NCBI GenBank assembly: GCA_964584025.1
Contig: CAZOYE010000010.1
Location: 14,515-78,514, forward strand
From: an uncultured Ignavibacteria bacterium
GTDB taxonomy: Bacteria > Zixibacteria > MSB-5A5 > CAIYYT01
Direction: 5' to 3'
DNA length: 64,000 bases
Within the stretch, counting starts at the first letter, position 1, and each line of letters opens with the position of its first letter. Under the pieces are notes generated by a model, which was not told the origin of the DNA, searched no databases, and was given only the letters and a program-made list of their open reading frames with translations. Shown one piece after another: positions 29,444-64,000 of the stretch. The translations under genes and the position numbers were made by a program.

Positions 29444-29481
29444 AGGGGGATTTCCAGCGAGCCTGTCATCGACGATCTTCA

Positions 29482-29510: not shown

Positions 29511-29552
29511 ATTGTCCAACAACGCCAATCAACCCATAATATTGGGAGTCTC

Positions 29553-31355
29553 ATGCGCATTGCATTTATCGCATTGACCGCAGTACTGATCGCGGCTGCT
29601 GGCTCCGGCCTGCTCGCGGCTCGACCCGACACAATTCGCGTCGAAGTCGACTACATGGTGGGCAACGGCCACTCGCACAAGCTGCAGCCTGCCGAAGTGG
29701 ATATGATCGTGGAGGCCTTTGCCTGCCAGGGGATCGTGATGATTATTGAAGTCTCCGACTCCGTTCCGCACTTCGACAATATGACCGGAGCTTCGTTCTT
29801 CACAAATACAGCGCCAAACGGCTTCGCCTGGTACAAGAACAATTACATGGATCATCTTGGCGACCCGGGTTGGCATTACTGCATCATGGTTCACCAGTAC
29901 AACGGTTCGGGCAGTTCGGGACTGGGAGAAATATTCGGGGACGATTTTATTGTCTCACTCGGCAGTTGGTCGGGCCAGATTGGAACGCCCTTCGATCGCG
30001 CGGGCACTTTCATGCACGAACTCGGGCACAATCTGGGACTGCGCCATGCCGGAAACCAGGATGAAGGCGCGATTGGGCAGTACAAGCCCAACTATGCCAG
30101 CGTGATGGCTTATCGTTACCAGGTCGACGCGGTGCGGCGCGGCATGCTCTGCACCGAGTTGGCGGATCTTCTGCTGATCGACCGCAAGAATCTCGATTAC
30201 TCCGACGGCACCCGGCCGTCGCTTGATGAAAATGCGCTGATCGAGGCCGACGGCATCGGATACGGTCCGGTCGATTGGAACTGCAACGGCATTATCGATG
30301 CCGGCCCCGTCTCACAAGACCTAAGGAATCCCGGCTGGTGTTCGTCGTCTTCGACGCTGCAAGTACTGAACGACTACGATGACTGGGACAATCTCACAGA
30401 TGTTACGCTATTCAAGTCGGGGCATATTCACCAGAGTGACGAAATAGTAGAGTGCATCACCTACGAAGAAGTGCTGGCGATGCGAGCGGCCAAAGCGGAT
30501 GTCTGTGATGGGCCGTTTGTCGAAGTCGAAGACTGTACCTTCCAGTACATTTGTAACGACGTCGACCAGGACGGCTGGGGCGACCCGGACGACACGCTGA
30601 ACAATTGCGAACTCGACAACTGCGGTACCGCATTCAATCCGGATCAATCAGACGTCGACGGCGACAGTCTTGGCGATGTCTGTGACCCGGACGCCGACGG
30701 CGACGGCCTGCTGAATGCTGCCGACAACTGCTGGCTGGTTGTCAACCTCGGCCAGGAGGATGCCGATGCCGACAGCGTTGGCGACGCCTGCGACAATTGC
30801 CCCGCGGTTTACAACCCGGAGCAACTAGATGAAGACGACGACGGCAACGGCGATCTTTGCGACGGCCGCGTGCACATTTACACGCCGACTACGCTTCCGA
30901 CGGCTTACAAGAACCAGCCGTATTTCTACCAGTTCGTCGGGGTCGGCGGTATCGGTACGCTCACGTGGACATTCCTCGGCGGCGACACACCGTTCGGATG
31001 CGATTTCAATGGCGGCACAGTCGGTACCTTGACCGGTACACCGTTCTTCTCGGCGCAGTTCTTCTTCACGGTGGAGTTGTCCGACTCGAATGTCCCGGCC
31101 TCGAAGGACACGATCAGCGTTTCAATTACCGTTGTCGACCCGCCCTATCTCTGCGGCGACGCCGACGACAGCGAGATCATAACAATTTCGGATGCCGTGT
31201 ACCTGATCAACTACATCTTCGGCGGAGGTCCAGCGCCATCGCCGCTCGAGGCCGGTGATGCGGATTGCAGCGGGATTGTGACAATCTCTGATGCCGTATA
31301 CCTCATTGCTTTCATCTTCGGTGGCGGTCCGGCGCCTTGCGCAGCCTGTCCATAG
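29553..31355 (+). CDS. Secreted reprolysin (M12B)-like metzincin with thrombospondin type-3 (TSP3) Ca-binding repeats and Cys-capped double dockerin-like CTD
   Basis: Signal peptide [36 protein letters not shown] matches HExxHxxGxxH. Repeated DxDxDGxGDxCDNC / NPxQxDxD units. CTD ends ...[14 protein letters not shown]. Confidence 0.7.
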
Positions 31356-31387
31356 GCTGACAGAAATTCAATCTCCGAACTTTGCGA

Positions 31388-31417
31388 AGAGGAACGCCGG
31401 GCGTTCCTCTTTTTTAT
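31388..31417 (+). terminator. Rho-independent terminator after the reprolysin-like gene
   Basis: GAGGAACGCC gg GCGTTCCTC followed by TTTTTTAT. Confidence 0.6.
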
Positions 31418-31528
31418 CCCTCTGCCAAACCTGCGAGCGAACGCGTCAAAAAACAATACCTAAATCGATGTATATACTCTATATTAACTGACGATCGCAG
31501 TTGCAGACACGGACCCGGGGAGAATTCG

Positions 31529-34500
31529 ATGAACTCACGTTTCTATCTCAGCCTTTTGTTGGCCGGACTTGCGGCTCTCTATGCGTACACGCCGTCGGCG
31601 AGCGCCGATGATTGCGGCACGGAGCTGACTGCCGCCGACATACAGGCCATATCATCTCTGCTTGACGAGCAATCGCTGGCCCGCGAAACGCGCTCCAACG
31701 ACTTCTATGACCTGCCGATCGCCATGCACATCGTGCGGCAAAGCAATGGTACCGGCGGAATCAGCGCCGCAGAAGTCGAGGCGTCCATCGACAGCGCGAT
31801 CATTCTGTTTGCGCAGGTCAACGTCTCGATCTACGAAATTCAGCCGGTGAACTTCATCGACGAAGATTTCTTCTATTTTGATATGTCGAGCAGCACGCAG
31901 ATGGACAGTCTCAAGCGCTACGACAAGGTCGCCAATGCGGTGAATATCTACTGGGTGCCGAGCTCTTCCGGATTTGGCTATTGCGGTATTTCGTCGTTTC
32001 CTTCGTCCGGTGTTCAGGGGATCATCATGAACAATAATTGCGGCGGCCTGCTCTCGAAAAACTCGACATTGGTGCACGAAATCGGCCATTACTTCAACTT
32101 AATGCATACTCACGAGCCGGCCTTTGGCATCGAGTGTCCTAACGGCAGCAACTGCACAACAGCGGGAGACCTGGTTTGCGATACGCCGGCCGATCCCAAC
32201 GTCAGCGGACACGTGGGCTTGCCGCCGGATTGCCTCTACGACAACTTCGCTTCTCCGCCGGGCGGCTGCGACGCAACACCCTATAGCCCGCCGGTCGACA
32301 ATATCATGTCCTACTCACGCCAATCATGCCGCGACATCTTGACTCCCGGACAGGTCGACCGTTTTCGTTTCGCCGTCGAGAAGCTGCGGCCGGAGCTGGC
32401 AACCTTGATTAACGGCGTCCTGATCACTCCCCTCGCGGTCAATCCGCTGATTGTGCCACTGGCAACAAAGCAGGACTCGGCGATTGTGCTTCAGAATTTC
32501 GGAGGCAGTGCCGTGACCTTCAACAGCGCGACCTCGGTCTTCGGGAATGTGGTCGTGACCGGAGGAACCCCGGTGACCCTGATGCCGTCGGAAGTCGGCA
32601 ATGTAACCTTCGAGTACGATGCCCTGGCGCTCACGTCGAGCTGCGATCTCGGAGTCGTCACCGATACGATTGTCATCACGATTTCGGCTCCGACCGTGTG
32701 GGAAGTGCGTATTCCTGTTACCGTGAATATTGCTTATGCGATTCCCGCGCAGGCGCAAAACTCATTTCAATCGACCTGTTTGACCTTCACCGTGCCGAAT
32801 ACGCCCGCCCTCGGCGACCGCACTTCGGCTGCATTCTTGGATCCCATCAGCAACGTGCTTTACGACGGTTCATTGTTGCTGGGCCTTATCGACGGGTCAG
32901 ATACCACCGTCTACATGGACATGTTCTCGCAAAGCGATTATCTCGCGGCCGATGGGTTCGTGGCCGGCACCGACGAATACGGCCGCACGACCCAGACCTT
33001 GCGCTTCGCGACCAACGATGCGCGCTTGAGCGGCGAAGTCATATATCATCTTGGCGGCGATATCGGGACCCCGGATAGCTGCCAGGTCATTGAAATCGAA
33101 TATCGCGTGCGCAATGATTGCGATACAAACTTGCAGGTCGTTGCCGGGATCGCCGCGGATTTTGATATCGACGGCTCAGGGTCGAACAACGCCCTTGTCG
33201 ATGGCGTCAACCACATTGTCTATGTCGATCAAGGCGCTCATGCGGCGGGTTTTGCGAATTTGATGCCTTGCCCGGAACAGGGTTCCTTGCGGACGATCTC
33301 CAACGCAGTCTCTATTTACCCCACCAACGGCCTCATTGACGGCGCGACGTACCTGGAGATGGTTTCTCCGAACAGCGGCGATATATTTGCGCAAGACGTC
33401 TCCGTGCTGCTCTCATTCGGCAAATTCCATCTTCACACCGGTACGGAGCGGACATTGCGCGCGGCATTGATGTCTTCCCAGTTCACGGGAGTCGGTCTGC
33501 AAGCTGCCGCCAATGGATTGCGTACTCTGAGCCCACCCGGGCCGTGCTTCCTCGAAGTTCCTCAAATCTACGGTACGATTCAAGAGGCAATCACGGCAGC
33601 GGTTGATGCTGACACGATCGTTCTCGCACCCGGGACCTACACCGGGTTCGGCAACAAAGACCTTGATTTCCAGGGCAAAAAGATCGTCGTGCGCGGCGCC
33701 GGGCCAACATCAACGTTTATCGACTGCGCCGGTTCGGCGGGAAGTCCGAGTCGTGGATTGCGCTTTGACGACGCCGCTGAGAACAGCAGTGTTCTGATTG
33801 AAGGGTTGGCGATCAAGAACGGATATGCTCCTGCTGACGGCCCGAGTTTTCGTCCGAACGGGGGCGCGGTTATTGTCATGAACGGCGCTTCGCCGACTTT
33901 CCGCAACTGCCGCTTCGAGTTGAACTTTGGCAAGCGCAATGGCGGTGCGATTTCCGTCGAGGTCGGGTCAAGTGTGGCACTTGAAAACTGTCTCTTCGTT
34001 GACAACTCCGTCTTCGACCCCCTGGACAACGAGTATTGGGGAGGCGCAGTCTATCTTGGGTCATCAACTTCCGCGGTGATCACCGCTTGCGAATTCATCA
34101 ACAACTCGGCATTTGCCGGCGGCGCACTCGCGTTAGACAATAGCGCTGTAACGATTGTTTCCGGTTGTCGGTTCATCGCCAACAGCGCCCAGTTTGCCGG
34201 CGTCGTGATTTGCGACGCTGCGGCAGCCGACTTCAACGGCTGCGCCTTCGCCGATAACTTCGCGGAGATTGCAGCGGGGGTTGGCTACTCGTTTAACGAG
34301 ACATTGTCGTCAAACTTCACGAATTGTACATTCGTCGGCAACTTCCTGTCGACCCCAAATCCAAATTCAGGAAGCGTCTATTATGCCCAGGATGCGGCTG
34401 TCGATTTCAGCCGCAGCATTTTCTATGACAACAGCGGCGATGAAGTGCTGGTGTGCAGTGGCACTGGCGCTTTCACAATCGACTGCTCCAACATTTTTGG

Positions 34501-35269
34501 CAATGCATCCGGTGATTGGACCGGCTGCGTCGCCAGTCAGTCGAGCAGCAACGGCAATTTCTCGGCTGATCCGATCTTTTGTGACCTGCCAGGGGATGAT
34601 TTCCGGGTCAGAAGTTCTTCGCCCTGCGCGCCGGCAAACAACTCATGCGCCGTTCTGGTCGGCGCTGGATCGCCCGCCTGCGGCAATACGCCAGCAGGAA
34701 GCGACGTAGCTGTCGCTGTGACCGACAGCGTGACGGTGACATTCAACACCGTGACCGACGACGGTGAAACTTCGGTGACGATCTCCGAAAGTGGACCGAA
34801 TCCGCCGGCCGGATTTGAAATTGTGCCATCGACGCCGGAGGCCTACTACGAGATTTCGACGACAGCACCGTACTCTGGCGTGATCGAGATCTGCATCTAC
34901 TACGATCCGGCACAGGTTACCCCCGGTAACGAGGCTGACTTAAAGCTCTTCCACTACGATGGATCAAACTGGTCCGATATCACCAGTACCATTGATCAAG
35001 GCGCCAATGTGATATGCGGCGAAACGACGTCGCTGTCGCCGTTTATCGTCGCGCGGCCGTCGTACATTTGCGGCGACGCCGACGGCACGGCGATTGTAAC
35101 GATCTCTGATGCAGTGTACCTGATCGGCTACATTTTTGGCGGCGGCCCGGCTCCTTCCCCACTGGCGAGCGGCGACGTCGATTGCAGCGGCATCGTGACG
35201 ATTTCGGATGTAGTCTACTTGATCAACTACATCTTCGGCGGCGGCCCGGCACCGTGCGCGGGGTGTTGA
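31529..35269 (+). CDS. Secreted M43 (pappalysin/ulilysin)-like metzincin fused to right-handed beta-helix repeats and Cys-capped double dockerin-like CTD
   Basis: Signal peptide MNSRFYLSLLLAGLAALYA. VHEIGHYFNLMHTHE plus CDTPADP. Repeated NxxAxxGGA(I/L)xxxxS beta-helix-type units. CTD ...[13 protein letters not shown]. Start moved to ATG 31529 because the terminator at 31388 lies inside the longer ORF. Confidence 0.7.
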   Translation: MNSRFYLSLLLAGLAALYAYTPSASADDCGTELTAADIQAISSLLDEQSLARETRSNDFYDLPIAMHIVRQSNGTGGISAAEVEASIDSAIILFAQVNVSIYEIQPVNFIDEDFFYFDMSSSTQMDSLKRYDKVANAVNIYWVPSSSGFGYCGISSFPSSGVQGIIMNNNCGGLLSKNSTLVHEIGHYFNLMHTHEPAFGIECPNGSNCTTAGDLVCDTPADPNVSGHVGLPPDCLYDNFASPPGGCDATPYSPPVDNIMSYSRQSCRDILTPGQVDRFRFAVEKLRPELATLINGVLITPLAVNPLIVPLATKQDSAIVLQNFGGSAVTFNSATSVFGNVVVTGGTPVTLMPSEVGNVTFEYDALALTSSCDLGVVTDTIVITISAPTVWEVRIPVTVNIAYAIPAQAQNSFQSTCLTFTVPNTPALGDRTSAAFLDPISNVLYDGSLLLGLIDGSDTTVYMDMFSQSDYLAADGFVAGTDEYGRTTQTLRFATNDARLSGEVIYHLGGDIGTPDSCQVIEIEYRVRNDCDTNLQVVAGIAADFDIDGSGSNNALVDGVNHIVYVDQGAHAAGFANLMPCPEQGSLRTISNAVSIYPTNGLIDGATYLEMVSPNSGDIFAQDVSVLLSFGKFHLHTGTERTLRAALMSSQFTGVGLQAAANGLRTLSPPGPCFLEVPQIYGTIQEAITAAVDADTIVLAPGTYTGFGNKDLDFQGKKIVVRGAGPTSTFIDCAGSAGSPSRGLRFDDAAENSSVLIEGLAIKNGYAPADGPSFRPNGGAVIVMNGASPTFRNCRFELNFGKRNGGAISVEVGSSVALENCLFVDNSVFDPLDNEYWGGAVYLGSSTSAVITACEFINNSAFAGGALALDNSAVTIVSGCRFIANSAQFAGVVICDAAAADFNGCAFADNFAEIAAGVGYSFNETLSSNFTNCTFVGNFLSTPNPNSGSVYYAQDAAVDFSRSIFYDNSGDEVLVCSGTGAFTIDCSNIFGNASGDWTGCVASQSSSNGNFSADPIFCDLPGDDFRVRSSSPCAPANNSCAVLVGAGSPACGNTPAGSDVAVAVTDSVTVTFNTVTDDGETSVTISESGPNPPAGFEIVPSTPEAYYEISTTAPYSGVIEICIYYDPAQVTPGNEADLKLFHYDGSNWSDITSTIDQGANVICGETTSLSPFIVARPSYICGDADGTAIVTISDAVYLIGYIFGGGPAPSPLASGDVDCSGIVTISDVVYLINYIFGGGPAPCAGC

Positions 35270-39378: not shown

Positions 39379-39450
39379 ATCTCCGAATCTTGCGTCGTGA
39401 CTGACCGTTACATCTTCGGCGGCGGTCCGGTACCGTGCGCGGGGTGTTGA
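39379..39450 (+). pseudogene. Orphan 3' remnant of a dockerin-like CTD gene (last ~24 codons plus stop)
   Basis: Translates IISESCVVTDRYIFGGGPVPCAGC*. The nucleotides are near-identical to 35220-35272 (acatcttcggcggcggcccggcaccgtgcgcggggtgttga). There is no upstream ORF. Confidence 0.55.
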
Positions 39451-39560
39451 GGGTTTCGGTGACATGTCGTTACTGACAAATACACAACAGCCGCCCGAAT
39501 CGCTTCGGACGGCTGTTTGTTTCCCGGTCCCTGGATCTGGTCAGATCAGATGCGCTAATC

Positions 39561-43780: not shown

Positions 43781-44374
43781 GTTGCCGGTTGGTTGAACGT
43801 TTTGATGTACCTACCGTACATTACTCTCAGCACAAACAGCACGTTTTAGTTAACGAATTAGTTAACAGCACAAGCCTCTCACACTAGGCACTGTCATTTC
43901 GATGCGATTTTTGTTACACAAGATCGTGCTCGTGGTGAACTGCGTCCTCCTATTCTCTTTATTCACCAAATCCTCATTCGCTTGACTTGTCGCAACTACT
44001 AACTGATTGAAGCAAGACGCAGTCTTGAGGAGGTGTGATCGCTTCGGGCGGTTCACAGTCGATAAAGCTATCGAGACGAAAATTACTGTGTACGACCTTA
44101 CCCGGGGAAACTAATGCTACGTTCGGAAGTACCGAAACTATTAGCAGAGGTAACCCCAATCTCCAAGATTAGGAATCCTTGAGACAAGTAGTTGGCCTGC
44201 TGACCCACAACCCTAGACAAGTTACGGGTCGCCGCCAGCTCCAAGGTCCCTGATCGGCTGTCGCAGGCTACATGATCTGCTGCAACGACAGGGTACTTAG
44301 GTTGGTGTGCCGCAGCTTTGAGCTGCAAGGCCGGACTACAAACGTATTTTCCTAACTGTGTAAGGAGGAAGTAC

Positions 44375-47300
44375 ATGTTCAAAAGACTTTTGCTGGTCGT
44401 GTTGACTTTGGCCTTGATTCTGGGCCTGAGCAGCATGGCTTTTGCAACCAAGGATCCGAGTTCCTTTAAAGTTGGCACGTATACGATCGGCACTCCTGGA
44501 GCCGGCCGCGCGCTACATCAGCCGCAGCCGATCCATCCGCCGACGACTCCGTATTCAGGCGGCATTGCTCAACCTTTGCCGAATCCGCAGCAGCCGGCCG
44601 CTCGTTCGAGCGCGGCCACCTGCGACTGGCAGGCCCAGTATGGCACCATTAGCTTCTATTTTAATGGTTCCGCTGGATTCGGCCAGGCAGTGCGTTGGTC
44701 ACAGACCAATTCTGCTGAAGTCTGTTCCCTGAAGACGATTAGTCTGTTGATTTACGGCGCCGCGAGCACCTTTGGTGCTTCGGCGGGCGTAACCTCCTAC
44801 GTATGGGCCGACGATGGAACCGGACTTCCTGGTGCCGTCATCTACTCAGTGAACGTTCCGCATGCGAGCATTCTGTTCTATCCGTCATACACGGATGTCG
44901 ATGTCTCGTCTGCGAATCTTGTTTTCTCCGGTGTGACTGAATACCACACTGGTTTCATTCCGAACAGCATTGCCGACACCTACGCCTGCTTGATGGATAA
45001 CGGCGACGGCGGACCGAACGCGTCCACCAGTCTCTACATCCAGGGCACGGGTTGGTTCGGTAACGGCGGCGTGTTCGTGAGCGGTGACATCAACTGGGCG
45101 CAAGAGATCTACACCTGCTGCTACGAAGCTGGTGACCCGGGTATCTGCGATACTCAGTTGTGGCATTGCGGTGTTGTGTATCGCTGGCCCGGTTTCTGGG
45201 CTGCCGAGCGCTTCACTGCCGCTGGCGAATGCACGCTGAAGACGGTGCGTCTGAGCATCTCTTCGTTCGGTACTGCCGCTTATGTCGGTGGTATTGACGC
45301 TCTCATTTACGCCGACAACGGCGGCCTTCCGGGAACGATTCTCGGCAGCGTCCACGTCCCGGATGCATCGATTACGTTTGCTCCTGGCATGACGTCAGTC
45401 GACGTTTCGGGTCTGGGCCTCGTGTTCAATAACGAGGACTACCACGTCGGTTATCGCCCGGTCAATCCGGCTGAAGATTATCAGCCGATTGGCGACGACG
45501 GCGAAATTCCGGCGACCTGTCCCGAGGGCGGCGTCCTTCGTGGTTCCGCGTCCCTTGATTTGGGCGCCACCTGGGATTACATGGCCAACATCGACATCGG
45601 TTACGATGATAACTGGGTGTTTGAAGTTGACTATTGCTGCGCGGCTGTCGTGAACCTTTGCGACAACCTCAACTATGCTGGTTCTCCGTTCTATTACTGG
45701 ACTGAGCCGGACGTTTATGGCGACCAGTTCCGTAACATGCGGTTTACCAACGCCGAATACTGCACGCTGAAGACCGTCAACCTGAACTTCTATGCTCCGG
45801 GTTCAGTCGGTGCTCCGGGCGCGCAAATCTACATTTGGAATTCGGACGGCCAGTTCCCGACTTCCGTGATCACGACCTACAACGTGAACCCGGTTGTTGA
45901 TTACTTCCCGACCGCGACCAGTGTCGATGTTTCGGCTGCGAACATTCTTCTGGCGGGTGACTACCACGTCGGATATTCCACGATTCTTAACGCCCCGACC
46001 GATGTGTTGGCGATTCTTTCGGACGACGGAACCACAGGTTCGCTTCGTTCGAGCGAGTTCTACTCCGGTCAGTGGTGGTTAATGGCGAACAGCTGGGGTG
46101 CGGATGTCAACTTCTTGATTGACGTCGACCGCTGCTGCACGCCTCCGGGTTATTGCCCGATCTTCTGCTCGCCGACCGATCAGTGGCCGACCTTCTCGCA
46201 CGACTATGCTCGTACGGGCCAGTCGCAACTGACTCTGGGCGACCTTTGCGGTATCGTGAAGGTTTGGCAGTATGACGGTCCCGCGGCTGTCAACGGCCTC
46301 AACTTCACCCAGCCCTTGATCTACAATGACCTGGTTTATGCTGCTTACAACGATCGCGTTGTCGCTGTCGACCTGCAGACCGGCGCGCTGGTGTGGGATA
46401 CCTTTACCCTCGGGTATGGTCTCATCATCACCAACTCGCTGCGTTGCCAGATGACGATCGACCCGACCGGCTTGTACTTTGGTACTGGTGCTCTCCGCGG
46501 ATTCGCGAAAGCAGATCTGGCGACCGGTGCGAACATCTGGGCGCGCGGCGTTGGCGTTGCCAACCCGCTTCCGGGTACGCCGGGCCAGACTCGTTTCGCC
46601 GGTTCCGTGATCGTCGGCAACGAAGTGTACTTTGGTTGCGAAAACTCCCAGATCTACGCTCTCAATGCCACGACCGGTGCCGACCTGTACTCAGCCCAGC
46701 TTTACACCGATGCCGGCAACACCGTGAAGGGTTCGATCTACGGACCGGCCACGACCGACGGCAGCGATTTGTTCTTCGGGTTGACCGCCAACCTTCTGGG
46801 CGCGACCAACGGCCTTGGCGCCGTGATCTCGGTCAGCTACGGTGGTGCGTTTACCCAGAACTGGAAGCACATCAGCGCTTTCCAGGCTGTGCTGCATGAG
46901 AACTTTGCGGCAGGCACAACCTATCGTTGTGACAACCTGTTCGTTCACGCTTCGTTTGCCTTCGGCAACCAGGGCGACTATTCCGGTTACCGTCAGAACC
47001 TCGATCCGGCTACGGGTACCCCGATCTGGACTTCGACGTTCCTGATGGGCCAGAATATCTTCTGCCCGCCGGCTGCCGGCAACGAACTGGTGTTCTTCCC
47101 GAACATCAATAACGGCTTCGGCAGCCCGAACGCCGGAACCCGCGGCGTGCGTGCGGTCAACTTTGCGAACAGCACGGTTTGGCTCAATGCCGCTTCCGAT
47201 GCCGCGAACAACAACGTGTTCAACTCGCCGGCGGTCACCTGCGATCCGTACGTCATGTATGGTTCGTATGACCTGATCGGCTTTGACTACCACTGGGGTA

Positions 47301-49267
47301 TCTTCGATGCCAATACTGGTGCGAACCTGATCGATTACATCGTCAGCGGTAACATCATGGGCACGGCGATTGCCAGTGGCACCGATGGCAACAACTACAT
47401 CGTCACCGCGATCCGCAACGCCAACGACGCCCAATCGGGCCGTCTGCTTTGCTTCGCGAACGGTGGCCCGCGTCCGCGTCTGAATATCCCTGAACTCCTG
47501 GTCCAGTTCACCGGCACCAATACGTCGGAAGCTGCTCCGGTTCAGAGAACCGACAATGACGCCGTTGTCAACACCGGTTGCGCGACTCTTAACGTTACGG
47601 CCACGCTTGAAGCCGGCGCTCCGCCGACCGCTCGCGTCATCTCCGACATTCATCCGGCTCTGGCGAACAAGGCGGAAGCTTTGGTTGCCGACTTGACGGA
47701 TTACACGGTCGAATCGATGATGGGCCGCGTTGCTCAGTCGATCAACACCAAGGGCGCTTCGATGTTCGAAGTGACCTCGGATGGCGAGACGATTGAAAAG
47801 GCGATCACGGCTGTGAAGCCGGCGATGGCCAATTCCGAGAGACTGGCTCCCCCGACCTGGGTGAGTTGGATTCTGCCGCTTTCGGGTGGCGCTTCGGTCA
47901 ACTTCGCAGTTGCCGGTGGTGGAAGTCAGGACTTTACGTTTGAGTTCGACCGCAGTGGAATGAACTTCCTTGCCCCGAACTACTACTATGTGTACATCGA
48001 TTCGGATGATCCGGATTACTTCGTCGAACAGTCCCCGCAGCCGTCCCCGCAGGCGATCATCGAGTACCAGATTGCGTACGAGTATTGTGCAAAAGACACA
48101 AGCCGTATCGACTTTGGTGCCGCTGGTAGCGCTTGGGCGACGAACTACGGCGCTCTGGCCGACGGCAACGTCGCGTTCGAATTCTCGCTGGATTCGAGCT
48201 CTGACGGCGCCTACGCCTACGAAGGCACCATGTTCTTCATGACGTCGATGGACGACGCCGCCTGGAACGTGTTTGGTAGCTTTGATGCTCAGTATCTCTA
48301 CCCGTTCTATGTCGGCCCGTTTGTCAACGGTGATTGTGGTGGCTGCGATATCGGCGTGAATCTCCCTGTCGAATACACAACTAATGGCGGCGCGACCTAC
48401 GCCCCGACCGTTGGTGATATTTGCACCTTCGCGATGATCGACTCGTTGCAGGGTATCCTGAATGCTCACCAGGCTGGTCCGTCGATCGGCTTGTTGATCG
48501 ATACCCGCGAAATCGGCACCTACGGCGCTGACTTCGCTGACTTCGCGTTGTTCGTCGTCGATGTTAACGAACGTAACGGCAACCCGATCACGGGTATGTA
48601 TTACGGCTCCTTCATGGATTGGGACATTGGCACAGACGGTGGCGGCGGCGACGTTGCCAAGGGCTTTGTCTACCAGAACGACGGCGTAGAAGTGCGCGGC
48701 TTTATCGGCCTGCCGCTTGCCGGTTCGTACTGGCCGGACGGCACCAAGACCGACCCGATGTACAATGCTCATATCCTTGAGAACTCGCTCGTTGTCTATC
48801 CGACCGCTCCGTGCTCCGACTGCTTACCGGATTCTCTGTATGCATTCGTGGACGGCGTGGCCGAAGGCGCTCTGGTTATCATGCCAGACGGCACCGGCCC
48901 GGATAAGTCGACGATTGCTACCTTCGGCAAGGCAAACATTGCCGGCGGCGGCACGCATAGCTACGGCTTCGCCATCTTCGGTCATGCCAACTCGGCTGAC
49001 CCGAACGGCGACACCGAAGCCATGAGCAAGTTCATCAACAAGTACGCCGGTTTCGCTCGCGGTGACGTGAACGACGACGACTTGATTGATCTCCGCGACC
49101 TGGTCAAGCTGAGCAACTACGTTGGCTCAGGCGGCCCTGGTCCGGCTCCGTTCAAGCACCTTGGCGACGTGAACAACGACGGCGTTGTTGACGCTGCTGA
49201 CTGCGCTTACCTGGCGGCTTACTACTTCACCGGTGGTGCCCCGCCGCAGAGCGCGTTCGTGTTCTAA
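44375..49267 (+). CDS. Giant secreted protein (~1630 aa): Pro/Gln-rich linker, three Cys-rich tandem ~165-aa modules, PQQ-like beta-propeller, divergent double dockerin-like C-terminus
   Basis: RBS AAGGAGG 7 nt before ATG 44375. Signal peptide MFKRLLLVVLTLALILGLSSMAFA. Three repeats each containing ECTLKT...(W/Y)ADxGG(L)PG...VDVS.ANL...HVGY...CC. PQQ-type motifs AVDLQTGALVWD, ALNATTGADLYS, KADLATGANIWA. C-terminus GDVNDDDLIDLRDLVKLSNYVGSGGPGP...GDVNNDGVVDAADCAYLAAYYFTGGAPP. Confidence 0.75.
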   Translation: MFKRLLLVVLTLALILGLSSMAFATKDPSSFKVGTYTIGTPGAGRALHQPQPIHPPTTPYSGGIAQPLPNPQQPAARSSAATCDWQAQYGTISFYFNGSAGFGQAVRWSQTNSAEVCSLKTISLLIYGAASTFGASAGVTSYVWADDGTGLPGAVIYSVNVPHASILFYPSYTDVDVSSANLVFSGVTEYHTGFIPNSIADTYACLMDNGDGGPNASTSLYIQGTGWFGNGGVFVSGDINWAQEIYTCCYEAGDPGICDTQLWHCGVVYRWPGFWAAERFTAAGECTLKTVRLSISSFGTAAYVGGIDALIYADNGGLPGTILGSVHVPDASITFAPGMTSVDVSGLGLVFNNEDYHVGYRPVNPAEDYQPIGDDGEIPATCPEGGVLRGSASLDLGATWDYMANIDIGYDDNWVFEVDYCCAAVVNLCDNLNYAGSPFYYWTEPDVYGDQFRNMRFTNAEYCTLKTVNLNFYAPGSVGAPGAQIYIWNSDGQFPTSVITTYNVNPVVDYFPTATSVDVSAANILLAGDYHVGYSTILNAPTDVLAILSDDGTTGSLRSSEFYSGQWWLMANSWGADVNFLIDVDRCCTPPGYCPIFCSPTDQWPTFSHDYARTGQSQLTLGDLCGIVKVWQYDGPAAVNGLNFTQPLIYNDLVYAAYNDRVVAVDLQTGALVWDTFTLGYGLIITNSLRCQMTIDPTGLYFGTGALRGFAKADLATGANIWARGVGVANPLPGTPGQTRFAGSVIVGNEVYFGCENSQIYALNATTGADLYSAQLYTDAGNTVKGSIYGPATTDGSDLFFGLTANLLGATNGLGAVISVSYGGAFTQNWKHISAFQAVLHENFAAGTTYRCDNLFVHASFAFGNQGDYSGYRQNLDPATGTPIWTSTFLMGQNIFCPPAAGNELVFFPNINNGFGSPNAGTRGVRAVNFANSTVWLNAASDAANNNVFNSPAVTCDPYVMYGSYDLIGFDYHWGIFDANTGANLIDYIVSGNIMGTAIASGTDGNNYIVTAIRNANDAQSGRLLCFANGGPRPRLNIPELLVQFTGTNTSEAAPVQRTDNDAVVNTGCATLNVTATLEAGAPPTARVISDIHPALANKAEALVADLTDYTVESMMGRVAQSINTKGASMFEVTSDGETIEKAITAVKPAMANSERLAPPTWVSWILPLSGGASVNFAVAGGGSQDFTFEFDRSGMNFLAPNYYYVYIDSDDPDYFVEQSPQPSPQAIIEYQIAYEYCAKDTSRIDFGAAGSAWATNYGALADGNVAFEFSLDSSSDGAYAYEGTMFFMTSMDDAAWNVFGSFDAQYLYPFYVGPFVNGDCGGCDIGVNLPVEYTTNGGATYAPTVGDICTFAMIDSLQGILNAHQAGPSIGLLIDTREIGTYGADFADFALFVVDVNERNGNPITGMYYGSFMDWDIGTDGGGGDVAKGFVYQNDGVEVRGFIGLPLAGSYWPDGTKTDPMYNAHILENSLVVYPTAPCSDCLPDSLYAFVDGVAEGALVIMPDGTGPDKSTIATFGKANIAGGGTHSYGFAIFGHANSADPNGDTEAMSKFINKYAGFARGDVNDDDLIDLRDLVKLSNYVGSGGPGPAPFKHLGDVNNDGVVDAADCAYLAAYYFTGGAPPQSAFVF

Positions 49268-59632: not shown

Positions 59633-59667
59633 CAACGGGCGACCCCTTGGGGTCGCCCGTGTTGTTT
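59633..59667. terminator. Second hairpin in the convergent intergenic region (candidate terminator for the minus-strand subtilisin gene)
   Basis: ACAACGGGCGACCCC ttg GGGTCGCCCGTGTTGT. Confidence 0.35.
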
Positions 59668-59706: not shown

Positions 59707-62700
59707 CTACGGACAGGCCGCGCAAGGCACGCTGCCGCCCGAGAAGATGTAGCCGATCAGGTACACCGCATCCGAGATGTTCACCAGCGCATCGCAGTTC
59801 GAATCGCCCGCTTCCAGCGGATTCGGCGCCGGACCACCAGAGAAGATATAGGAGATCAGGTACACTGCGTCTGAGATATTCACGATCTCATCCTCGTTGC
59901 AGTCGCCGCACATGTAGAATGGCCCCGGAGGCAACACGTTCAGCGTCGCCGGCAGAATCAGCGGATTGTTCTGCGGCAACGGATCGTTCGACGTGATCTT
60001 CACGTTCGCCTGATAGGTTCCCGTATCCAAATCGGTAGAGACAAACTTCAAGCTCAGCGTGTCCGCTTCTCCCGGCGCCACCGTCCCCGACAGCGGCTCG
60101 ACATACAGCCACTGTTTCGGCTTGGCAAACTCGATCGCCAGGTTCGGATGGATGTAGCTCGTGTTCAGCGACACCTGCAAGCCGTCGGTGCCCCCCAGGT
60201 TCTCCGTCCCGATCGTGTTGCTCGTCAGGTCAAAACCCGCCCCCATGCTCTGGTACTGCAGCTTGATCCCGCCGTCCGGCGACAAGATCATCTGCGCCGT
60301 GATCACATCCCCCGGATTCACCCCCGACTCATATTCGGGATAATTGATCCAGGAAATCACTAAAGCGCCGCCCACGTTCTGATACAGCACCTTCCCCCCC
60401 GGATTGTCCGCATCGTCCGGGTTCAAGTCGGTCCAGCACCAGTAAATCGCGTTGTTCGGCGTCGCCGCCGCCGGAATCGCGGCGTTAAACCGGCTGCCGT
60501 AGTTGTCCGTCGGCCCAAAGCCGATATACCCGTTCGACGCCATGTAAAACTGCGTGTAATTGCCGTCGTAGTACGGGAAGGTGAAACCGATCGGATACGG
60601 CCCGGAGAAGTTGTCGTCATTGAGCGCGCCGATAATATCGGTGCCGGTCGCCGAGATGTCGATCCAGTTGTAGGTCGGGCCGCCCGGATCATCCGAGTCG
60701 ATCCAGATGTAACCAAACGTGTCGGGACCACCCGCATCGTAGATCACGTCCGGACCCCGCGGCGCCTTGTCGCGCTGATCCTTCGGCAACTCGATCGCCG
60801 GCAGCTCGCTCTCACCGTGCGCCGTCTGCACCCGGTCCTGAGCTGCCAGCTCCGCAAAGCGCGCTTCGCTCTTGGTCAGCAGCGGCTGCACCACCACCGA
60901 GTAACTCAGACCGCCCAGACCCGAGTTGTCGATTACCAGTTCATCGTAGGTCGAATCGTCTTCGTGCAGGTTCTCGACGAAGCTGCCCGGGTTGACCGCG
61001 ATCGCCGGACCAAAGTCGATATTGATGTTGTCGACGAACCAGTCATCCAACGCGCCCGCCGTCGCCACCGTGCGGAAGCGGATGCGGAACGCCGAGTGAT
61101 AACCGTTGCTCGGCACGCCGGTCGAGAAGTACGAATAGGCCGTCATATCCGCGCTCGAACCGAGATGGCGCGTCAGTTCTGCCCAGGCGCCGGCATCGGT
61201 GTAGTACTCGACGATCAGATCGTCGCCCGCTTCGGGGCTGTCGCCGCCGCCCTTCTTCTCGTAGTAGTAGCCGATGTTCACCCCGGAGGCGACATTCATA
61301 TTGATCGCCTGCGACATCAGCGTATCGGCCCCCGTCGGATTGCCGTTTAAGCGCACGCTGTTGGGTTCCGACGGTTCGGCGATACCCACCCCGTCGATCG
61401 TCACGTTGGTCCATTGCACCCACAGGCTCGGGTCAACCGTCGTCGTCACGAAGTTGTCGACAAACGGCAGTTCCACCGGTTGTCCCGCCGAGGTCGTGCG
61501 CAGCGACGAACTCTGCGACACCAGCGCATCGGCCTGCGAAGTCGCCGTCACCGTAGCAGTATCAACTTGCCCGTAGAAACTCGCCGGGATAATCACCCGC
61601 GCCTTAAAGTCGAATGTAGCATTCGGCGTCAGGTTCGGCGTTGCCGTGATCTGCGACGACTGCGTCTCATCCCACAACGTCGTCGCCCAGTCCGCGCCAA
61701 ACAGCGACAGATTGTAAGCGTCGTCAAACAAACCGTCGTTCGTCACGGTCAGATCATGCCACACCGTGTCATCTACCGCCCCGGAGCCGAGGGAGATGTC
61801 CGGCGAAAGTAGCACTGCATAGTCGATAACGCTGAACGAGTAGACTTCGGTCGTATCACCCTTGCCGTTGATGGCGTGGGCTTCCATGTAATATGAGATA
61901 TCCGTGCCGGGTCCCTGCGCCGGAATGTATCCGACGTACTCGTTTGGATTGCCGGTCGCAACCAGAGTATCGAGGTAATTTGTTGCCGAAATCGTGTAAT
62001 GCAGAAGCAGCGAATCCGCAATCAGCGCGGCATCGCCAACGATGTTGGCCACGACAGGATAAGGATTCACTGTCTCTTTGGTATCCGGCAAACCTTCGTG
62101 CGAGATAGCAACACCGCAAGGATAGGACTGCACCAGCAACAAGCTGTTGTACACATTGAGTCGTCCACCGGTGACCGTTATGCCGGCCAGCGACGGCTTA
62201 GGATCGGTGCCGTCGAGCAGGTAATCGCGCATGATCAGCGCCAGCGCCCCCGGATTCTGCTTGTAGGCATTTATCATCGTCGGACAGGCTTCCGACCACA
62301 ACAGGGCGATCGCGCCGCAAACGTGCGGCGTCGCCATCGAGGTGCCGGTCAGCGTGGAATAACTCGAGCCCGGAACCGTCGAAAGCACATCGGTGCCCGG
62401 CGCGCCAAGGTCGATCGTCGTAGCACCATAGGCGGCACCGCTGTTCTTCGTATCGGTGCGTGTGGTATTGGTCACCGCAATCATGTAAGGGCTCGGGCAA
62501 GCTGTCGGGATATCGCCCTGAGCGTCAATGTCGATATTGAGATTTGCGGTCGCGCCGGCGTTAAGAACACCGACCGAACCGAGCGAATCATACATCGCGC
62601 ACCAGATCGGGAAATTTGCCGGTTGGCCGAAGTCGACGCCGAACGAGGCATTGGTGGCCACGACAAACGCCCCTTTCAGTCCGTTGGTCTGGTTGTACAG

Positions 62701-63540
62701 GCGCCGCATGGTCAGCGCATACTGGTACGCGCGGACGGCGATCGACTCGGTGCCGGAGGAACCGGCAATAGCCATAACCTTGGCGCCCCAGTTCACGCCA
62801 CTGACGCCGAGGGCGTTATTGCCGCGCGCAGCCGCGATACCGGCCACGTGCGTTCCGTGCGTGTTGCTCGGGATTGAGCCGTCCATCGCGTAGGCATCCC
62901 AGCCGTCATAATCGTCGATGTAACCATTGAGATCATCGTCGATGCCGTTACCGGCGATTTCATTGCGATTCTTGAAGTAGACAATATCGGCGTGGTTGAT
63001 ATCAAAGCCGCCGTCGACGATGGCAACGACGATGGTGTCGCCCGTCGATGTCACGCCGCCCGTCGTGATATCCCAGGCTTCCGGCGCGTCAATGTCGGCG
63101 TCAACTGTGCCGCCTGACTGGCCGGTGTTATTCAGCGCGTACTGCTGGCCGAACTGCGTATCGTTCGGGATCGTCGCGCGCATGGCAATGTGGTGGTTGA
63201 ACTGAACCGCCAGAACGCCGGGATGATATTTCACGTTTTCGAGAAGTTGCTCGCGATCGGCCTTCTGCATTCCCGCATCGTCAAACTCGTAAAGCCAGAC
63301 GTTCAGATCCGGCGCGAGGAGTTCGACCGGGTGAAGATTCACCCCGAAGAAAGCGTCGCCAACAGCTTTGGCGTCCGCATCGCGGGCGACTTGAATCATT
63401 AGCTGATTGGGTTCGTAGGTCGGCTCCTTGATTTGAATGGGTTGGGCCTGGATCGCTGTGGCGACAGCCAATAGCAGAATGGCCATTGCCGTCCACACGC
63501 GCAAATGAGTGCGGGAGGACATTAACGCTCGATCGTTCAT
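59707..63540 (-). CDS. Secreted subtilisin-like serine peptidase (S8) with large C-terminal extension and Cys-capped double dockerin-like CTD
   Basis: Signal peptide. Catalytic triad regions VAIVDGG, HGTHVAGIAAARG, GTSMATPHVCG. C-terminus [29 protein letters not shown]...[33 protein letters not shown]. Confidence 0.85.
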   Translation of the reverse strand: MNDRALMSSRTHLRVWTAMAILLLAVATAIQAQPIQIKEPTYEPNQLMIQVARDADAKAVGDAFFGVNLHPVELLAPDLNVWLYEFDDAGMQKADREQLLENVKYHPGVLAVQFNHHIAMRATIPNDTQFGQQYALNNTGQSGGTVDADIDAPEAWDITTGGVTSTGDTIVVAIVDGGFDINHADIVYFKNRNEIAGNGIDDDLNGYIDDYDGWDAYAMDGSIPSNTHGTHVAGIAAARGNNALGVSGVNWGAKVMAIAGSSGTESIAVRAYQYALTMRRLYNQTNGLKGAFVVATNASFGVDFGQPANFPIWCAMYDSLGSVGVLNAGATANLNIDIDAQGDIPTACPSPYMIAVTNTTRTDTKNSGAAYGATTIDLGAPGTDVLSTVPGSSYSTLTGTSMATPHVCGAIALLWSEACPTMINAYKQNPGALALIMRDYLLDGTDPKPSLAGITVTGGRLNVYNSLLLVQSYPCGVAISHEGLPDTKETVNPYPVVANIVGDAALIADSLLLHYTISATNYLDTLVATGNPNEYVGYIPAQGPGTDISYYMEAHAINGKGDTTEVYSFSVIDYAVLLSPDISLGSGAVDDTVWHDLTVTNDGLFDDAYNLSLFGADWATTLWDETQSSQITATPNLTPNATFDFKARVIIPASFYGQVDTATVTATSQADALVSQSSSLRTTSAGQPVELPFVDNFVTTTVDPSLWVQWTNVTIDGVGIAEPSEPNSVRLNGNPTGADTLMSQAINMNVASGVNIGYYYEKKGGGDSPEAGDDLIVEYYTDAGAWAELTRHLGSSADMTAYSYFSTGVPSNGYHSAFRIRFRTVATAGALDDWFVDNINIDFGPAIAVNPGSFVENLHEDDSTYDELVIDNSGLGGLSYSVVVQPLLTKSEARFAELAAQDRVQTAHGESELPAIELPKDQRDKAPRGPDVIYDAGGPDTFGYIWIDSDDPGGPTYNWIDISATGTDIIGALNDDNFSGPYPIGFTFPYYDGNYTQFYMASNGYIGFGPTDNYGSRFNAAIPAAATPNNAIYWCWTDLNPDDADNPGGKVLYQNVGGALVISWINYPEYESGVNPGDVITAQMILSPDGGIKLQYQSMGAGFDLTSNTIGTENLGGTDGLQVSLNTSYIHPNLAIEFAKPKQWLYVEPLSGTVAPGEADTLSLKFVSTDLDTGTYQANVKITSNDPLPQNNPLILPATLNVLPPGPFYMCGDCNEDEIVNISDAVYLISYIFSGGPAPNPLEAGDSNCDALVNISDAVYLIGYIFSGGSVPCAACP

Positions 63541-63818
63541 GATTTGCTCCTAAAAGTCCCGGGTTGAGGGGTTAAAACGTTCGTCATCGTTGCTCGCATC
63601 GGTGCATGGAAAAGACGTTTCCGCCCAGTGACTTGGGGCCGCTGGGGCGGCGTAAGTATATATCCAGCTTGGCTAAACTAATATAAAGCGTTTAACGCGC
63701 TTGTCAACGAAAGACAACAACAATTCCGGCGCCAATTTGGGGGATTCAACAGATTGCCGACCAAGCCGTTAGCACCCCTGCGGCCTCCCGGATCTCTGGT
63801 CTGAATCAACGTCGGCGC

Positions 63819-64000
63819 CTACGGACATGCCGAGCAAGGGCTGGCGCCGAAATTGAAGAAATAGTTCAACAAAAACACCGCATCTGAAATATCCAAACGC
63901 AGGTCGCAATTCACATCAGCCGATTCAAACTGACTCGGTGCCGCTCCCGCCGCAAAAATGTAGTTCACGATAAACACCGCATCTGAGAAGTTCACCTGCT
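63819..64000 (-). CDS. 3' end of a further gene with Cys-capped double dockerin-like CTD (partial; continues beyond window end; not in supplied ORF track)
   Basis: Reverse-complement translation is QVNFSDAVFIVNYIFAAGAAPSQFESADVNCDLRLDISDAVFLLNYFFNFGASPCSACP*. Confidence 0.6.
   Translation of the reverse strand, partial: QVNFSDAVFIVNYIFAAGAAPSQFESADVNCDLRLDISDAVFLLNYFFNFGASPCSACP

Follow-up and report, generated by a model that had tools for sequence, protein, structure and literature searches.

A cysteine-stapled type I dockerin as the putative surface-display tag of secreted proteases in a Zixibacteria-like bacterium

The window, which here means the whole analysed stretch of 64,000 nucleotides, closes with two minus-strand genes whose products share a C-terminal module. 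The locus contains the following features.

59635..59660 (no strand): palindromic GC-rich hairpin, 11 bp stem with 9 GC, then T-runs on both strands
59707..63540 (-): S8 subtilase gene, ORF of 1277 aa
59710..59910 (-): dockerin module of the subtilase, residues 1211-1277 (translation, PF00404, AF2, Foldseek)
59713-59715 (-): tail Cys C1276
59722-59724 (-): tail Cys C1273
59770-59805 (-): Ca loop 2 of the subtilase dockerin, followed by helix 3
59794-59796 (-): C1249, loop-2 position 4
59869-59904 (-): Ca loop 1 of the subtilase dockerin, followed by helix 1
59908-59910 (-): clasp Cys C1211
62275..63042 (-): Peptidase_S8 catalytic domain, residues 167-422 (Pfam match)
63680..63707 (-): promoter-like site TTGACA-16-TATATT, 11/12, by consensus match only
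63819..63998 (-): 3' end of the window-edge gene, 59 codons and a stop, translation QVNFSDAVFIVNYIFAAGAAPSQFESADVNCDLRLDISDAVFLLNYFFNFGASPCSACP*
63825-63827 and 63834-63836 (-): tail Cys of the edge gene
63882-63917 (-): Ca loop 2 of the edge gene, DVNCDLRLDISD
63906-63908 (-): loop Cys of the edge gene

The subtilase begins with a signal peptide (MNDRALMSSRTHLRVWTAMAILLLAVATAIQA/QP), followed by the Peptidase_S8 domain (96.5 bits in Pfam), an uncharacterised middle part of about 790 aa, and the C-terminal dockerin. Both the Asp-His-Ser triad and the oxyanion Asn of subtilases are present (D176, H228, S401, and N297), and the motifs VAIVD176, H228GTH, and GTS401MATPH are intact. The promoter-like site, within the 278-nt spacer ahead of the start codon, suggests that the gene may be a transcription unit of its own. 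The hairpin, located between the convergent pyruvate:ferredoxin oxidoreductase gene (end at 59544) and the subtilase gene (end at 59707), is likely a bidirectional terminator.

The first-pass annotation held that both genes end in the module, and this is borne out: the translation of 59707-59910 (-) is exact, the ORF at the window edge is in frame, and Dockerin_1 is recognized in both products. The extent of the edge ORF had to be corrected, as the end at 64000 given for it is two bases out of frame and the in-frame fragment is 63819-63998. Of dockerin repeat 1 this fragment retains the second half, and it continues through Ca loop 2 and helix 3 to the two tail Cys. It had also been expected to belong to a full gene with an enzyme domain and not to a frameshifted remnant. 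In agreement with that, locus L001, colinear with the window at 88.4% nucleotide identity (L001:10137 corresponds to window position 64000), encodes a syntenic ortholog (L001:8582-10318) that is a complete 578-aa protein with the layout signal peptide/Peptidase_M43/TSP3/Ig-like/dockerin (Pfam M43 36.1 bits, Dockerin_1 33.8 bits). The edge gene is another M43, and therefore adds no catalytic class.

The module had been described as an unnamed "CTD family" with a Cys-capped double structure. According to Pfam, PDB profile, and Foldseek comparisons, it is an ordinary type I dockerin (PF00404, Dockerin_1), here of a cysteine-stapled form that is common among Zixibacteria-like bacteria; the dockerin domain itself is known, and it is the four-Cys frame that sets the module apart. 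At a Pfam gathering cut-off of 22.9 bits, Dockerin_1 scores 28.9 bits in the subtilase (E 1.4e-6) and 25.2 bits in the edge fragment (E 2e-5), far beyond chance. Two tandem repeats of about 22-24 residues are present, each made of a 12-residue loop and a helix (F-hand), and the loops are expected to be EF-hand-like and to bind Ca2+. Ligand positions 1, 3, 5, 9, and 12 are occupied by D/N/D/N(D)/D in every loop, in line with the conserved Ca-loop residues noted at the first reading of the sequence; the subtilase loops are DCNEDEIVNISD (loop 1) and DSNCDALVNISD (loop 2), and the linker GGPAPNPLEAG between helix 1 and loop 2 contains the short helix 2. The two subtilase repeats are identical at 20/27 positions, which amounts to a high internal twofold symmetry. 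The AF2 model of the module (pLDDT 87) has three helices, two of them spanning model residues 21-33 and 54-66 and a short one spanning 41-44. With this predicted structure as the query, every Foldseek match in the PDB with probability >=0.9 (ranks 1-31) is a dockerin; the type I dockerins 4uyp_B, 2mte, 4dh2_B, and 4fl4 superimpose with TM 0.72-0.79 and rmsd 1.9-2.3 A. Likewise, all PDB matches of a profile of 95 modules are dockerins, the best being 8x39 (E 7.5e-8), and NCBI labels relatives as 'dockerin type I domain-containing protein [Candidatus Zixiibacteriota]'. The module is far from absent elsewhere, with 11,556 cluster representatives at E<=1e-10, and of the 51 matches that 1 Mb of related loci yielded, most lie 0-3 residues from the stop codon.

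A six-frame HMM scan of the window detected seven copies of the module: five of the Cys type (four complete and one cut at the window edge), one Cys-less, and one remnant. The copies outside the S8/edge locus belong to the following features.

27416..35269 (+): first dockerin locus, three adjacent signal-peptide proteins, each with a C-terminal 4-Cys dockerin
27416-29443 (+): 675-aa dockerin protein
29490-31355 (+): 621-aa metzincin with He_PIG and dockerin
31382-35269 (+): 1295-aa protein with Peptidase_M43, beta-helix, and dockerin
39409..39452 (+): intergenic 44-nt remnant, encoding ...YIFGGGPVPCAGC*; a 20-residue copy at about 39390-39450 in the HMM scan
44318..49267 (+): 1649-aa PQQ-like beta-propeller protein with a canonical Cys-less dockerin (Dockerin_1 35.2 bits, PQQ_2 37.8 bits)

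The Cys-less dockerin at 44318-49267 represents another dockerin subtype of this genome, next to the Cys type. The remnant is 95.5% identical to 35228-35271, the last 44 nt of the gene at 31382-35269. The nucleotide sequences of the window modules are as diverged as had been proposed, with 44-73% identity, and the dN/dS check called for at that time is in agreement with selection on the module and not with recent duplication: pairwise pS is 0.60-0.87 and dN/dS 0.05-0.40. With synonymous sites saturated and dN/dS this low, the modules are old paralogues under purifying selection. The module is indeed shared by different secreted proteases, an S8 enzyme, M43 enzymes, and a weak M12B/M66-like metzincin. 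However, the three "catalytic classes" seen in them hold as three MEROPS-like families, whereas the catalytic types are only two, serine and zinc-metallo.

The cysteines were analyzed in 267 unique C-terminal modules, which are interrelated and were gathered with a profile built from 4-Cys modules. In this set of related sequences, the number of tail cysteines equals the number of cysteines present at the N-terminal and loop-2 positions in 149/165, 34/44, and 34/39 cases, and the Fisher p-values of co-occurrence, to be read with the same relatedness and 4-Cys profile in mind, are 2e-21 and 2e-24. The tail Cys is found at offset +7 if the loop-2 Cys alone is present, at +8 if the N-terminal Cys alone is present, and at both +7 and +10 in 119/156 modules having both; 78% of the 267 modules have an even number of cysteines. 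Because the cysteines co-vary as pairs, the four conserved ones most likely form two intramolecular disulfides. One, a clasp, would link the Cys located two positions ahead of loop 1 to the last Cys (C1211-C1276 in the subtilase), and the other would join the Cys at loop-2 position 4 to the one seven residues past helix 3 (C1249-C1273); the periplasm of the diderm cell is where both would be formed. The clasp would be geometrically natural in view of the pseudo-twofold dockerin symmetry, whereas the bond between loop 2 and +7 is not obviously so. The subtilase module bears a fifth, unpaired cysteine, C1214, at loop-1 position 2.

What the tag binds is the functionally important question, and it was not raised in the first-pass annotation. 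No cohesin was detected in the 64-kb window or in the 13 kb of L001, the closest relative, by Pfam on 22 of the long ORFs or by two custom cohesin HMMs in six frames. In related sequences, Pfam Cohesin and this dockerin occur in one polypeptide (P0145, P0266, P0225, and P0175). Two loci (L067 and L068) encode dockerin-cohesin-dockerin proteins, the former with further Cys-dockerin genes alongside, and in adaptor proteins a cohesin at the N-terminus is combined with a Cys-dockerin at the C-terminus. Other MAGs encode proteins of about 700 aa with a signal peptide, a single N-terminal cohesin, Big_9, BACON, and a T9SS CTD; in the L069 protein Cohesin scores 30.9 bits and Por_Secre_tail 36.5 bits, and homologues that match it over the full length at 52-90% identity carry Zixibacteriota names. 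Such names are found on the cohesin-type proteins P0276, P0278, and P0314. The Pfam cohesin model misses most members of this family, and what assigns them to the cohesins is the one Pfam match in L069, together with a custom HMM, a PDB profile match that is weak (E 0.0025-0.011), and the predicted fold: in the AF2 model of the N-terminal domain of P0283 (pLDDT 88.6), the best 50 PDB matches are all cohesins. P0283 itself, 68% identical to the L069 protein, is encoded on a 1.9 Mb contig (contig_8898) together with the Cys-dockerin P0084 and the Cys-dockerin gene of L010. The MAG of P0283 also has a full-length homologue of the window S8 (L012, 58% identity) that ends in a 4-Cys dockerin; in the nearest MAG shown to have a cohesin/T9SS-CTD protein, the S8 is only 50-58% identical to the one in the window.

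These observations point to a role of the module as a plug that docks Sec-exported proteases onto a cell-surface cohesin, and we consider such a surface-display tag the probable function, judging from sequences and structural models. The dockerin at the extreme C-terminus of the S8 subtilase and the M43 metalloprotease would hold the enzyme non-covalently and in a Ca2+-dependent manner on the cohesin of a surface protein encoded elsewhere in the genome. As in the relatives, this partner would have a T9SS CTD that fixes it to the outer membrane, and the outcome would be a protease-rich, cellulosome-like surface display. The system would thus work like a cellulosome anchor, yet it is not a cellulosome proper: each protein of the partner family has a single cohesin, with no multi-cohesin scaffoldin among them, and the dockerin cargo of the window, which in Pfam terms consists of proteases, one beta-helix protein, and one PQQ-propeller protein, gave no CAZyme match.

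The module could also be a dockerin by descent that does not bind cohesin in this organism, attaching instead to another surface ligand (polysaccharide, LPS, S-layer, or a prey or substrate surface) or serving as a Ca2+/disulfide-stabilised cap against autoproteolysis. The failure to find a cohesin in the window or L001 speaks for this, and Peer et al. in 2009 (cited in PMC8542988) reportedly described many genomes having dockerin-like modules and no detectable cohesins. Moreover, the helix face is conserved across thousands of proteins and in both repeats, a closer fit to a universal ligand than to the species-specific pairing usual in cellulosomes. However, the Ca ligands and the predicted dockerin fold are fully intact, and in relatives cohesins are fused to, adjoin, or share a contig with this very subtype; we regard such an orphan dockerin as unlikely. 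Alternatively, the Cys-dockerin could be primarily a secretion or sorting device, recognized directly by an outer-membrane translocon or carried piggy-back through the type IX system while bound to the cohesin/T9SS-CTD carrier. The module is strictly C-terminal; homologous S8 enzymes of Calditrichota and Bacteroidota have a T9SS CTD (PF18962) at exactly its position, the cohesin partner family bears such a CTD, a PorV-like gene adjoins a dockerin gene in L064, and disulfides would imply periplasmic folding ahead of outer-membrane transit. But a C-terminal position is the norm for cellulosomal dockerins too, the module lacks a PF18962 match and is helical and not a beta-sandwich, and for folded proteins the type II secretion or type IV pilus-like cluster present in the window would be a possible export route that needs no tag at the C-terminus. 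We know of no experimental precedent for such a device and consider it improbable.

Least credible, to the point of being negligible, is the original idea of a previously unrecognised Cys-capped CTD family unrelated to known domains, as is a related version in which gene conversion or recent duplication produced the similarity. With Dockerin_1, the three copies at 27-35 kb reach 19.2-22.4 bits, just under the gathering score, and no NCBIfam model matches them; in addition, the 95% identical 44-nt remnant is a sign that dockerin 3' ends have to some extent been copied recently. Nevertheless, both copies of the S8/edge locus pass the Pfam threshold, dockerins are the sole matches of the profile and of the predicted fold, and synonymous sites are saturated between the intact copies. 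The Pfam scores, these saturated sites, the PDB profile, and Foldseek together rule this idea out.

Docking onto a surface cohesin, the reading preferred here, has counterparts in described systems. Clostridial type I dockerins (PF00404; 1OHZ_B, 2MTE, 4DH2_B, and 4UYP_B) have the same two F-hand repeats, D/N ligands, and three-helix fold, the same C-terminal location on signal-peptide enzymes, and the twofold symmetry known from dual-binding-mode dockerins. In contrast to them, the module described here has four conserved cysteines, absent from the solved dockerins aligned, and a very conserved sequence on both helices; its host is a diderm FCB-group bacterium, and its cargo is proteases instead of glycoside hydrolases. 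The best PDB sequence match of the module profile is the double dockerin of the C. thermocellum S8 protease Clo1313_0689 (8X39/8X3A), also an S8 enzyme with C-terminal dockerins. This double dockerin forms an intramolecular clasp and binds the cell-bound scaffoldin ScaD, and has been proposed as a surface anchor (PMC12484212). There, however, the clasp is non-covalent and the dockerins are in tandem, whereas a single dockerin with a probable disulfide is found here, and anchoring in Firmicutes proceeds via SLH-bearing scaffoldins and not a T9SS CTD. In another FCB-group candidate phylum, Cloacimonadota, a cellulosome-like complex has been deduced for 'Ca. Stygibacter', with signal-peptide S8/S53 and C25 peptidases having C-terminal dockerins and a cohesin scaffoldin with a conserved CTD for cell-surface attachment (PMC8542988). 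That scaffoldin, 3,755 aa long, has cohesins in tandem and also CBMs, as opposed to the single N-terminal cohesin on Ig-like spacers here, and no Cys frame is reported in PMC8542988. Finally, the T9SS CTD (PF18962/TIGR04183, type A CTD) has the same extreme C-terminal position and serves the same end, a secreted enzyme kept on the outer surface; however, it is a beta-sandwich and a signal for secretion and covalent anchoring, whereas the dockerin would be a helical, Ca-binding, non-covalent plug. Neither PF18962 in the window proteins scanned nor a custom CTD HMM in the window gave a match; T9SS CTD and dockerin coexist in the Zixibacteria loci L012 and L024.

All sequence and fold comparisons identify the C-terminal module shared by the 1277-aa subtilase and the gene cut by the window edge as a type I dockerin. 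In Pfam, Dockerin_1 (PF00404; gathering score 22.9) scores 28.9 bits in the subtilase, 25.2 bits in the edge fragment and 33.8 bits in the full-length ortholog of the edge gene. Searched against all PDB sequences, a profile built from 95 members of the family retrieved dockerins only, and its best match was a C. thermocellum S8 protease double dockerin (8x39, E 7.5e-8). The AlphaFold2 model of the subtilase module (mean pLDDT 87; helices at model residues 21-33, 41-44, and 54-66) resembles the type I dockerins 4uyp_B, 2mte, 4dh2_B, and 4fl4 with TM 0.72-0.79, rmsd ~2 A, and probability 1.00. The D/N ligands occupy loop positions 1, 3, 5, 9, and 12 in the subtilase loops DCNEDEIVNISD and DSNCDALVNISD, and the edge-gene loop DVNCDLRLDISD has the same canonical ligands at 1, 3, 5, 9, and 12. 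What the first-pass annotation called a double module is the two F-hand repeats of the dockerin, identical in the subtilase at 20 of 27 positions; such internal symmetry underlies dual binding in clostridial dockerins. That annotation was right about a selected, common tail, but the Cys-capped family that it proposed as new is the known dockerin domain, as Pfam, the PDB profile, and the predicted fold agree. Two further copies of a common tail are ordinary, the domain being annotatable automatically, and so is the locus itself; its interest is modest and comes from subfamily-level features.

An HMM built from the copies and applied to all six frames finds seven module instances in the window, five of the Cys type, one canonical and Cys-less, and one a remnant. 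These and two flanking signals are as follows.

27416-29443 (+): ORF with Cys-type module
29490-31355: ORF with Cys-type module
31382-35269: ORF with Cys-type module
~39390-39450: 20-residue dockerin remnant
44318-49267 (+): 1649-aa ORF, PQQ-like beta-propeller protein with a canonical Cys-less dockerin at its C-terminal end (Dockerin_1 35.2 bits)
59635-59660: strong hairpin between the subtilase gene and the convergent PFOR gene
59707-63540 (-): 1277-aa subtilase with Cys-type module
63707-63680: near-consensus promoter-like site upstream of the subtilase gene
63819 onward (-): cut ORF with Cys-type module

The translation of 59707-59910 (-) is the module closing the subtilase ORF, and the edge ORF reads QVNFSDAVFIVNYIFAAGAAPSQFESADVNCDLRLDISDAVFLLNYFFNFGASPCSACP* in frame 63819-63998 (-); both gene ends had been described correctly, except that the edge-ORF frame ends at 63998, not 64000. 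The subtilase has a signal peptide, a Peptidase_S8 domain (96.5 bits in Pfam), and an intact catalytic apparatus (D176, H228, S401, and N297). Neither the subtilase, with either of two candidate starts, nor the PFOR protein had an identical database entry by which the window might be extended. At 88.4% nucleotide identity, the end of the window matches the syntenic relative L001 (contig CAZNWJ010000013.1), whose position 10137 corresponds to window position 64000. In L001 the ortholog of the edge gene is complete and hence no frameshifted fragment there, with 578 aa comprising a signal peptide, Peptidase_M43 (36.1 bits; HEVGHCLGLWH), TSP3 repeats, an Ig-like region, and a dockerin.

Dockerin carriers in the window comprise one S8 and two M43 proteases, one weakly M12B/M66-like metzincin, one PQQ-propeller protein, and one protein with an unassigned N-terminal domain; the proteases therefore amount to two catalytic types, not the three classes counted previously. 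The unassigned N-terminal part of the 27416-29443 protein is an uncharacterised secreted domain: its 605 aa have no sequence relative in the PDB, and the corresponding ~600 aa (27416-29230, +) match no Pfam family, apart from a weak FN3-like match. Directly upstream of the three-gene dockerin cluster at 27416-35269, 22821-26786 (-) encodes two paralogous secreted proteins with DUF3857 and transglutaminase-like domains. A 211-aa ORF at 37422-38057 (-), which abuts a 729-aa ORF (35297-37486) with no Pfam match, looks like a truncated S8 paralogue (pseudogene); its residues 78-142 match residues 109-178 of the subtilase with 43% identity, and the match stops after the catalytic Asp motif (GILDSGV).

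In a codon alignment of the six usable module copies, analyzed by the Nei-Gojobori method, nucleotide identity is 44-73%, synonymous sites are saturated (proportion of differences 0.60-0.87), and dN/dS is 0.05-0.40. These values bear out the proposal of selection on the module rather than recent duplication: the intact copies are old paralogues kept by purifying selection. The exception is the remnant, 44 nt at 39409-39452 (+) in the intergenic region between 38307-39215 and 39561-40940, which encodes ...YIFGGGPVPCAGC* and is 95.5% identical to the last 44 nt (35228-35271) of the 31382-35269 gene. In contrast to the saturated divergence among intact copies, this stretch was copied recently, and only in part, from a dockerin 3' end.

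The sole unusual feature of the module is its cysteine frame, with the consensus C-G-D(loop 1)...G-D-x-[DN]-C(loop 2, position 4)...Y-I-F-x-G-G-P-x-P-C-x-x-C. From 572 near-full-length module instances in 313 proteins we retained 267 unique C-terminal ones, and in most of these the number of cysteines in the tail after helix 3 equals the number upstream. Two tail cysteines accompany the joint presence of the cysteine before loop 1 (N-Cys) and that of loop 2 in 149 of 165 modules, and a single one accompanies the loop-2 cysteine alone in 34 of 44 and the N-Cys alone in 34 of 39 (Fisher p 2e-21 and 2e-24 for co-occurrence among sequences that are not independent). Positions follow the same rule: counted from the last aromatic residue of helix 3, the tail cysteine stands at +7 in 25 of 40 loop-2-only modules and at +8 in 16 of 26 N-only modules, while modules with both have +7 and +10 (119/156) or +7 and +17 (21/156). 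The cysteine number is even in 78% of modules. If the N-Cys paired instead with the loop-2 Cys, and the tail CxxC internally, one would expect modules with both upstream cysteines and no tail cysteine, and modules with two tail cysteines and neither upstream one; these patterns were seen once and never, respectively, among the 267 modules, and this alternative pairing was rejected. From the counts, the positions, and the failure of the alternative we infer, on statistical grounds, two intramolecular disulfides per module, a terminal clasp and a bond between loop 2 and the tail. In the subtilase these would be C1211-C1276 and C1249-C1273, respectively; a fifth cysteine lies at position 2 of loop 1. 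The clasp is further supported by the tandem poly-dockerin protein P0121, since each of its modules holds exactly the clasp pair.

Five proteins (P0121, P0123, P0126, P0129, and P0130) are little more than tandem arrays of 6-11 dockerin modules, every module being flanked by a Cys pair of its own, and one such poly-dockerin is annotated as a 'peptidoglycan-binding protein' in a Parcubacteria MAG. To our knowledge, poly-dockerins of this length are unusual, only double dockerins having been described. In the searchable literature, itself incomplete and hence no proof of novelty, we found no description of Cys-stapled bacterial dockerins or of dockerins in Zixibacteria. A very large subfamily putatively stapled by two disulfides matters for the stability of dockerins and for the engineering of dockerins with a covalent clasp.

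The module extends far beyond the window: at thresholds of E<=1e-3, 1e-10, and 1e-30 its profile matches 38,854, 11,556, and 177 cluster representatives, respectively, among 1.84 billion. Those relatives that bear a name are 'dockerin type I domain/repeat-containing protein' entries of Candidatus Zixiibacteriota MAGs. Homologues of the subtilase with 39-73% identity likewise terminate in dockerins, whose Cys patterns are of several kinds; the MAGs of these homologues carry the label Zixibacteriota, Ignavibacteria, or simply bacterium. The module is a general tail for secreted proteins, fused in 55 representative carriers to FG-GAP, beta-helix, TSP3, M14, M23, PAD, PKD, and other domains. Short 'dockerin proteins' of 60-125 aa were considered as stand-alone dockerins and rejected, being mostly contig-end or frameshift fragments of long genes. 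Many such database entries are likely frameshift fragments, because in the related locus L064 (7018-10291 and 10358-11371) the 96-aa 'dockerin protein' P0021 overlaps the end of a 1011-aa reprolysin/TSP3 gene; the next gene downstream is PorV-like (T9SS).

The occurrence of two dockerin subtypes side by side in one genome may reflect two cohesin specificities. No cohesin is encoded in the window, as judged by Pfam on 22 of the long ORFs and by two custom cohesin HMMs in six frames. The first custom HMM gave nothing significant in the window or the related loci then collected, and phmmer with the C. thermocellum CipA cohesin, a test too insensitive to mean much, gave no match in related loci. 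Elsewhere, PF00963 shares a polypeptide with the dockerin in P0145 (34.1 bits), P0266 (37.6), P0225 (37.4), and P0175 (27.1), and cohesins clearly belong to the world of the Cys-dockerin subfamily. A metagenome scan with cohesins of this type yielded dockerin-cohesin-dockerin proteins in L067, which has three further Cys-dockerin matches, and in L068. The same scan found, in L066 and L069, ~700-aa proteins composed of a signal peptide, an N-terminal cohesin, Big_9, BACON, and a T9SS sorting domain (Cohesin 30.9 and Por_Secre_tail 36.5 bits in L069). Full-length homologues of the L069 protein, 52-90% identical (P0276, P0278, and P0314), are annotated 'T9SS type A sorting domain-containing protein [Candidatus Zixiibacteriota bacterium]'. 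P0283, another homologue with 68% identity, maps to 280-303 kb of contig_8898 (1,898,640 bp), which also carries the Cys-dockerin P0084 and the Cys-dockerin gene of L010; the same MAG has a full-length homologue of the window subtilase, 58% identical and with a 4-Cys dockerin end (L012). The predicted structure of the P0283 N-terminal domain (pLDDT 88.6) has cohesins as all 50 of its 50 best PDB matches (TM up to 0.79), and the four top PDB matches of the cohesin sequence profile, weak ones (E 0.0025-0.011), are cohesins as well. The 'non-cellulosomal' dockerins of a Gram-negative candidate phylum acquire a candidate, testable cohesin partner anchored by a T9SS CTD.

Four proteins of ~1,100 aa (P0295, P0313, P0319, and P0339) join the N-terminal cohesin of the T9SS-anchored family to a C-terminal Cys-dockerin that replaces the CTD. 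They look like adaptors, with an adaptor-scaffoldin-like architecture that would imply hierarchical assembly. In L026, from a MAG labelled Ignavibacteria, a 429-aa ORF (154-1440, -) combines a cohesin-like domain at its N-terminus (E 7e-7 with the profile of the Zixibacterial cohesin domain) with a single-repeat 'half dockerin' as its tail; an S8-dockerin gene lies within a few kb. In the alignment of that domain C117 is invariant, C14 nearly so, and a C-terminal DCG motif is conserved; the cohesin partner may also be disulfide-stabilised.

Homologues of the subtilase in Calditrichota and Bacteroidota, 46-60% identical in the catalytic half, bear a T9SS CTD (PF18962, 32-60 bits) exactly at the position of the window dockerin, and both tail types occur together in the Zixibacteria-type loci L012 and L024. 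Therefore the dockerin is probably an alternative means of holding the enzyme at the surface and does not replace T9SS as such. The domain identities, the cysteine covariation, and the existence and co-occurrence of the partner family are observed. We propose that the tagged enzyme would be exported by Sec; the later steps we infer, namely that it would fold, load Ca2+, and be stapled by disulfides in the periplasm, pass the outer membrane, and use helices 1 and 3 to dock onto the cohesin of the T9SS-anchored surface protein.

Such working would resemble the cell-surface anchoring branch of cellulosomes, as in the binding of the C. thermocellum S8 double dockerin to ScaD (PMC12484212) and the cellulosome-like complex inferred for Cloacimonadota (PMC8542988). 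Strictly speaking, however, it does not qualify as a cellulosome, because only one cohesin is present in the partner and glycoside hydrolases were not among the cargo seen here; the putative disulfide staple, the T9SS-anchored mono-cohesin protein, and the protease cargo set it apart. A wider proposal is a phylum-wide 'proteolytic cellulosome' in Zixibacteria-like diderms, where enzymes tagged with a dockerin stapled by two disulfides would fold in the periplasm and then plug into the mono-cohesin protein. In its boldest form the latter would be both surface anchor and carrier of dockerin-tagged cargo through the type IX translocon, a role that would explain orthologous S8 proteases with CTD or dockerin at one position; we regard this proposal as improbable. 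It appears that these bacteria of sediment and soil keep batteries of proteases on display at their surface instead of releasing them, which bears on how they break down protein-rich detritus.

Two other loci of the window touch on export and disulfide formation.

3233-12186 (-; 3.2-12.2 kb): type II secretion or type IV pilus-like cluster, with a secretin with STN domain, a large N-methyl pseudopilin-like protein, GspF/PilC, and GspE/PilB with MshEN
14633-19169 (-): fused cbb3-type oxidase (COX1 and FixO in one 711-aa ORF) adjoining a FixG-like ferredoxin

The former is a possible outer-membrane route for folded, disulfide-bonded dockerin enzymes. The latter suggests microaerobic respiration, which would fit an oxidising periplasm able to form disulfides.
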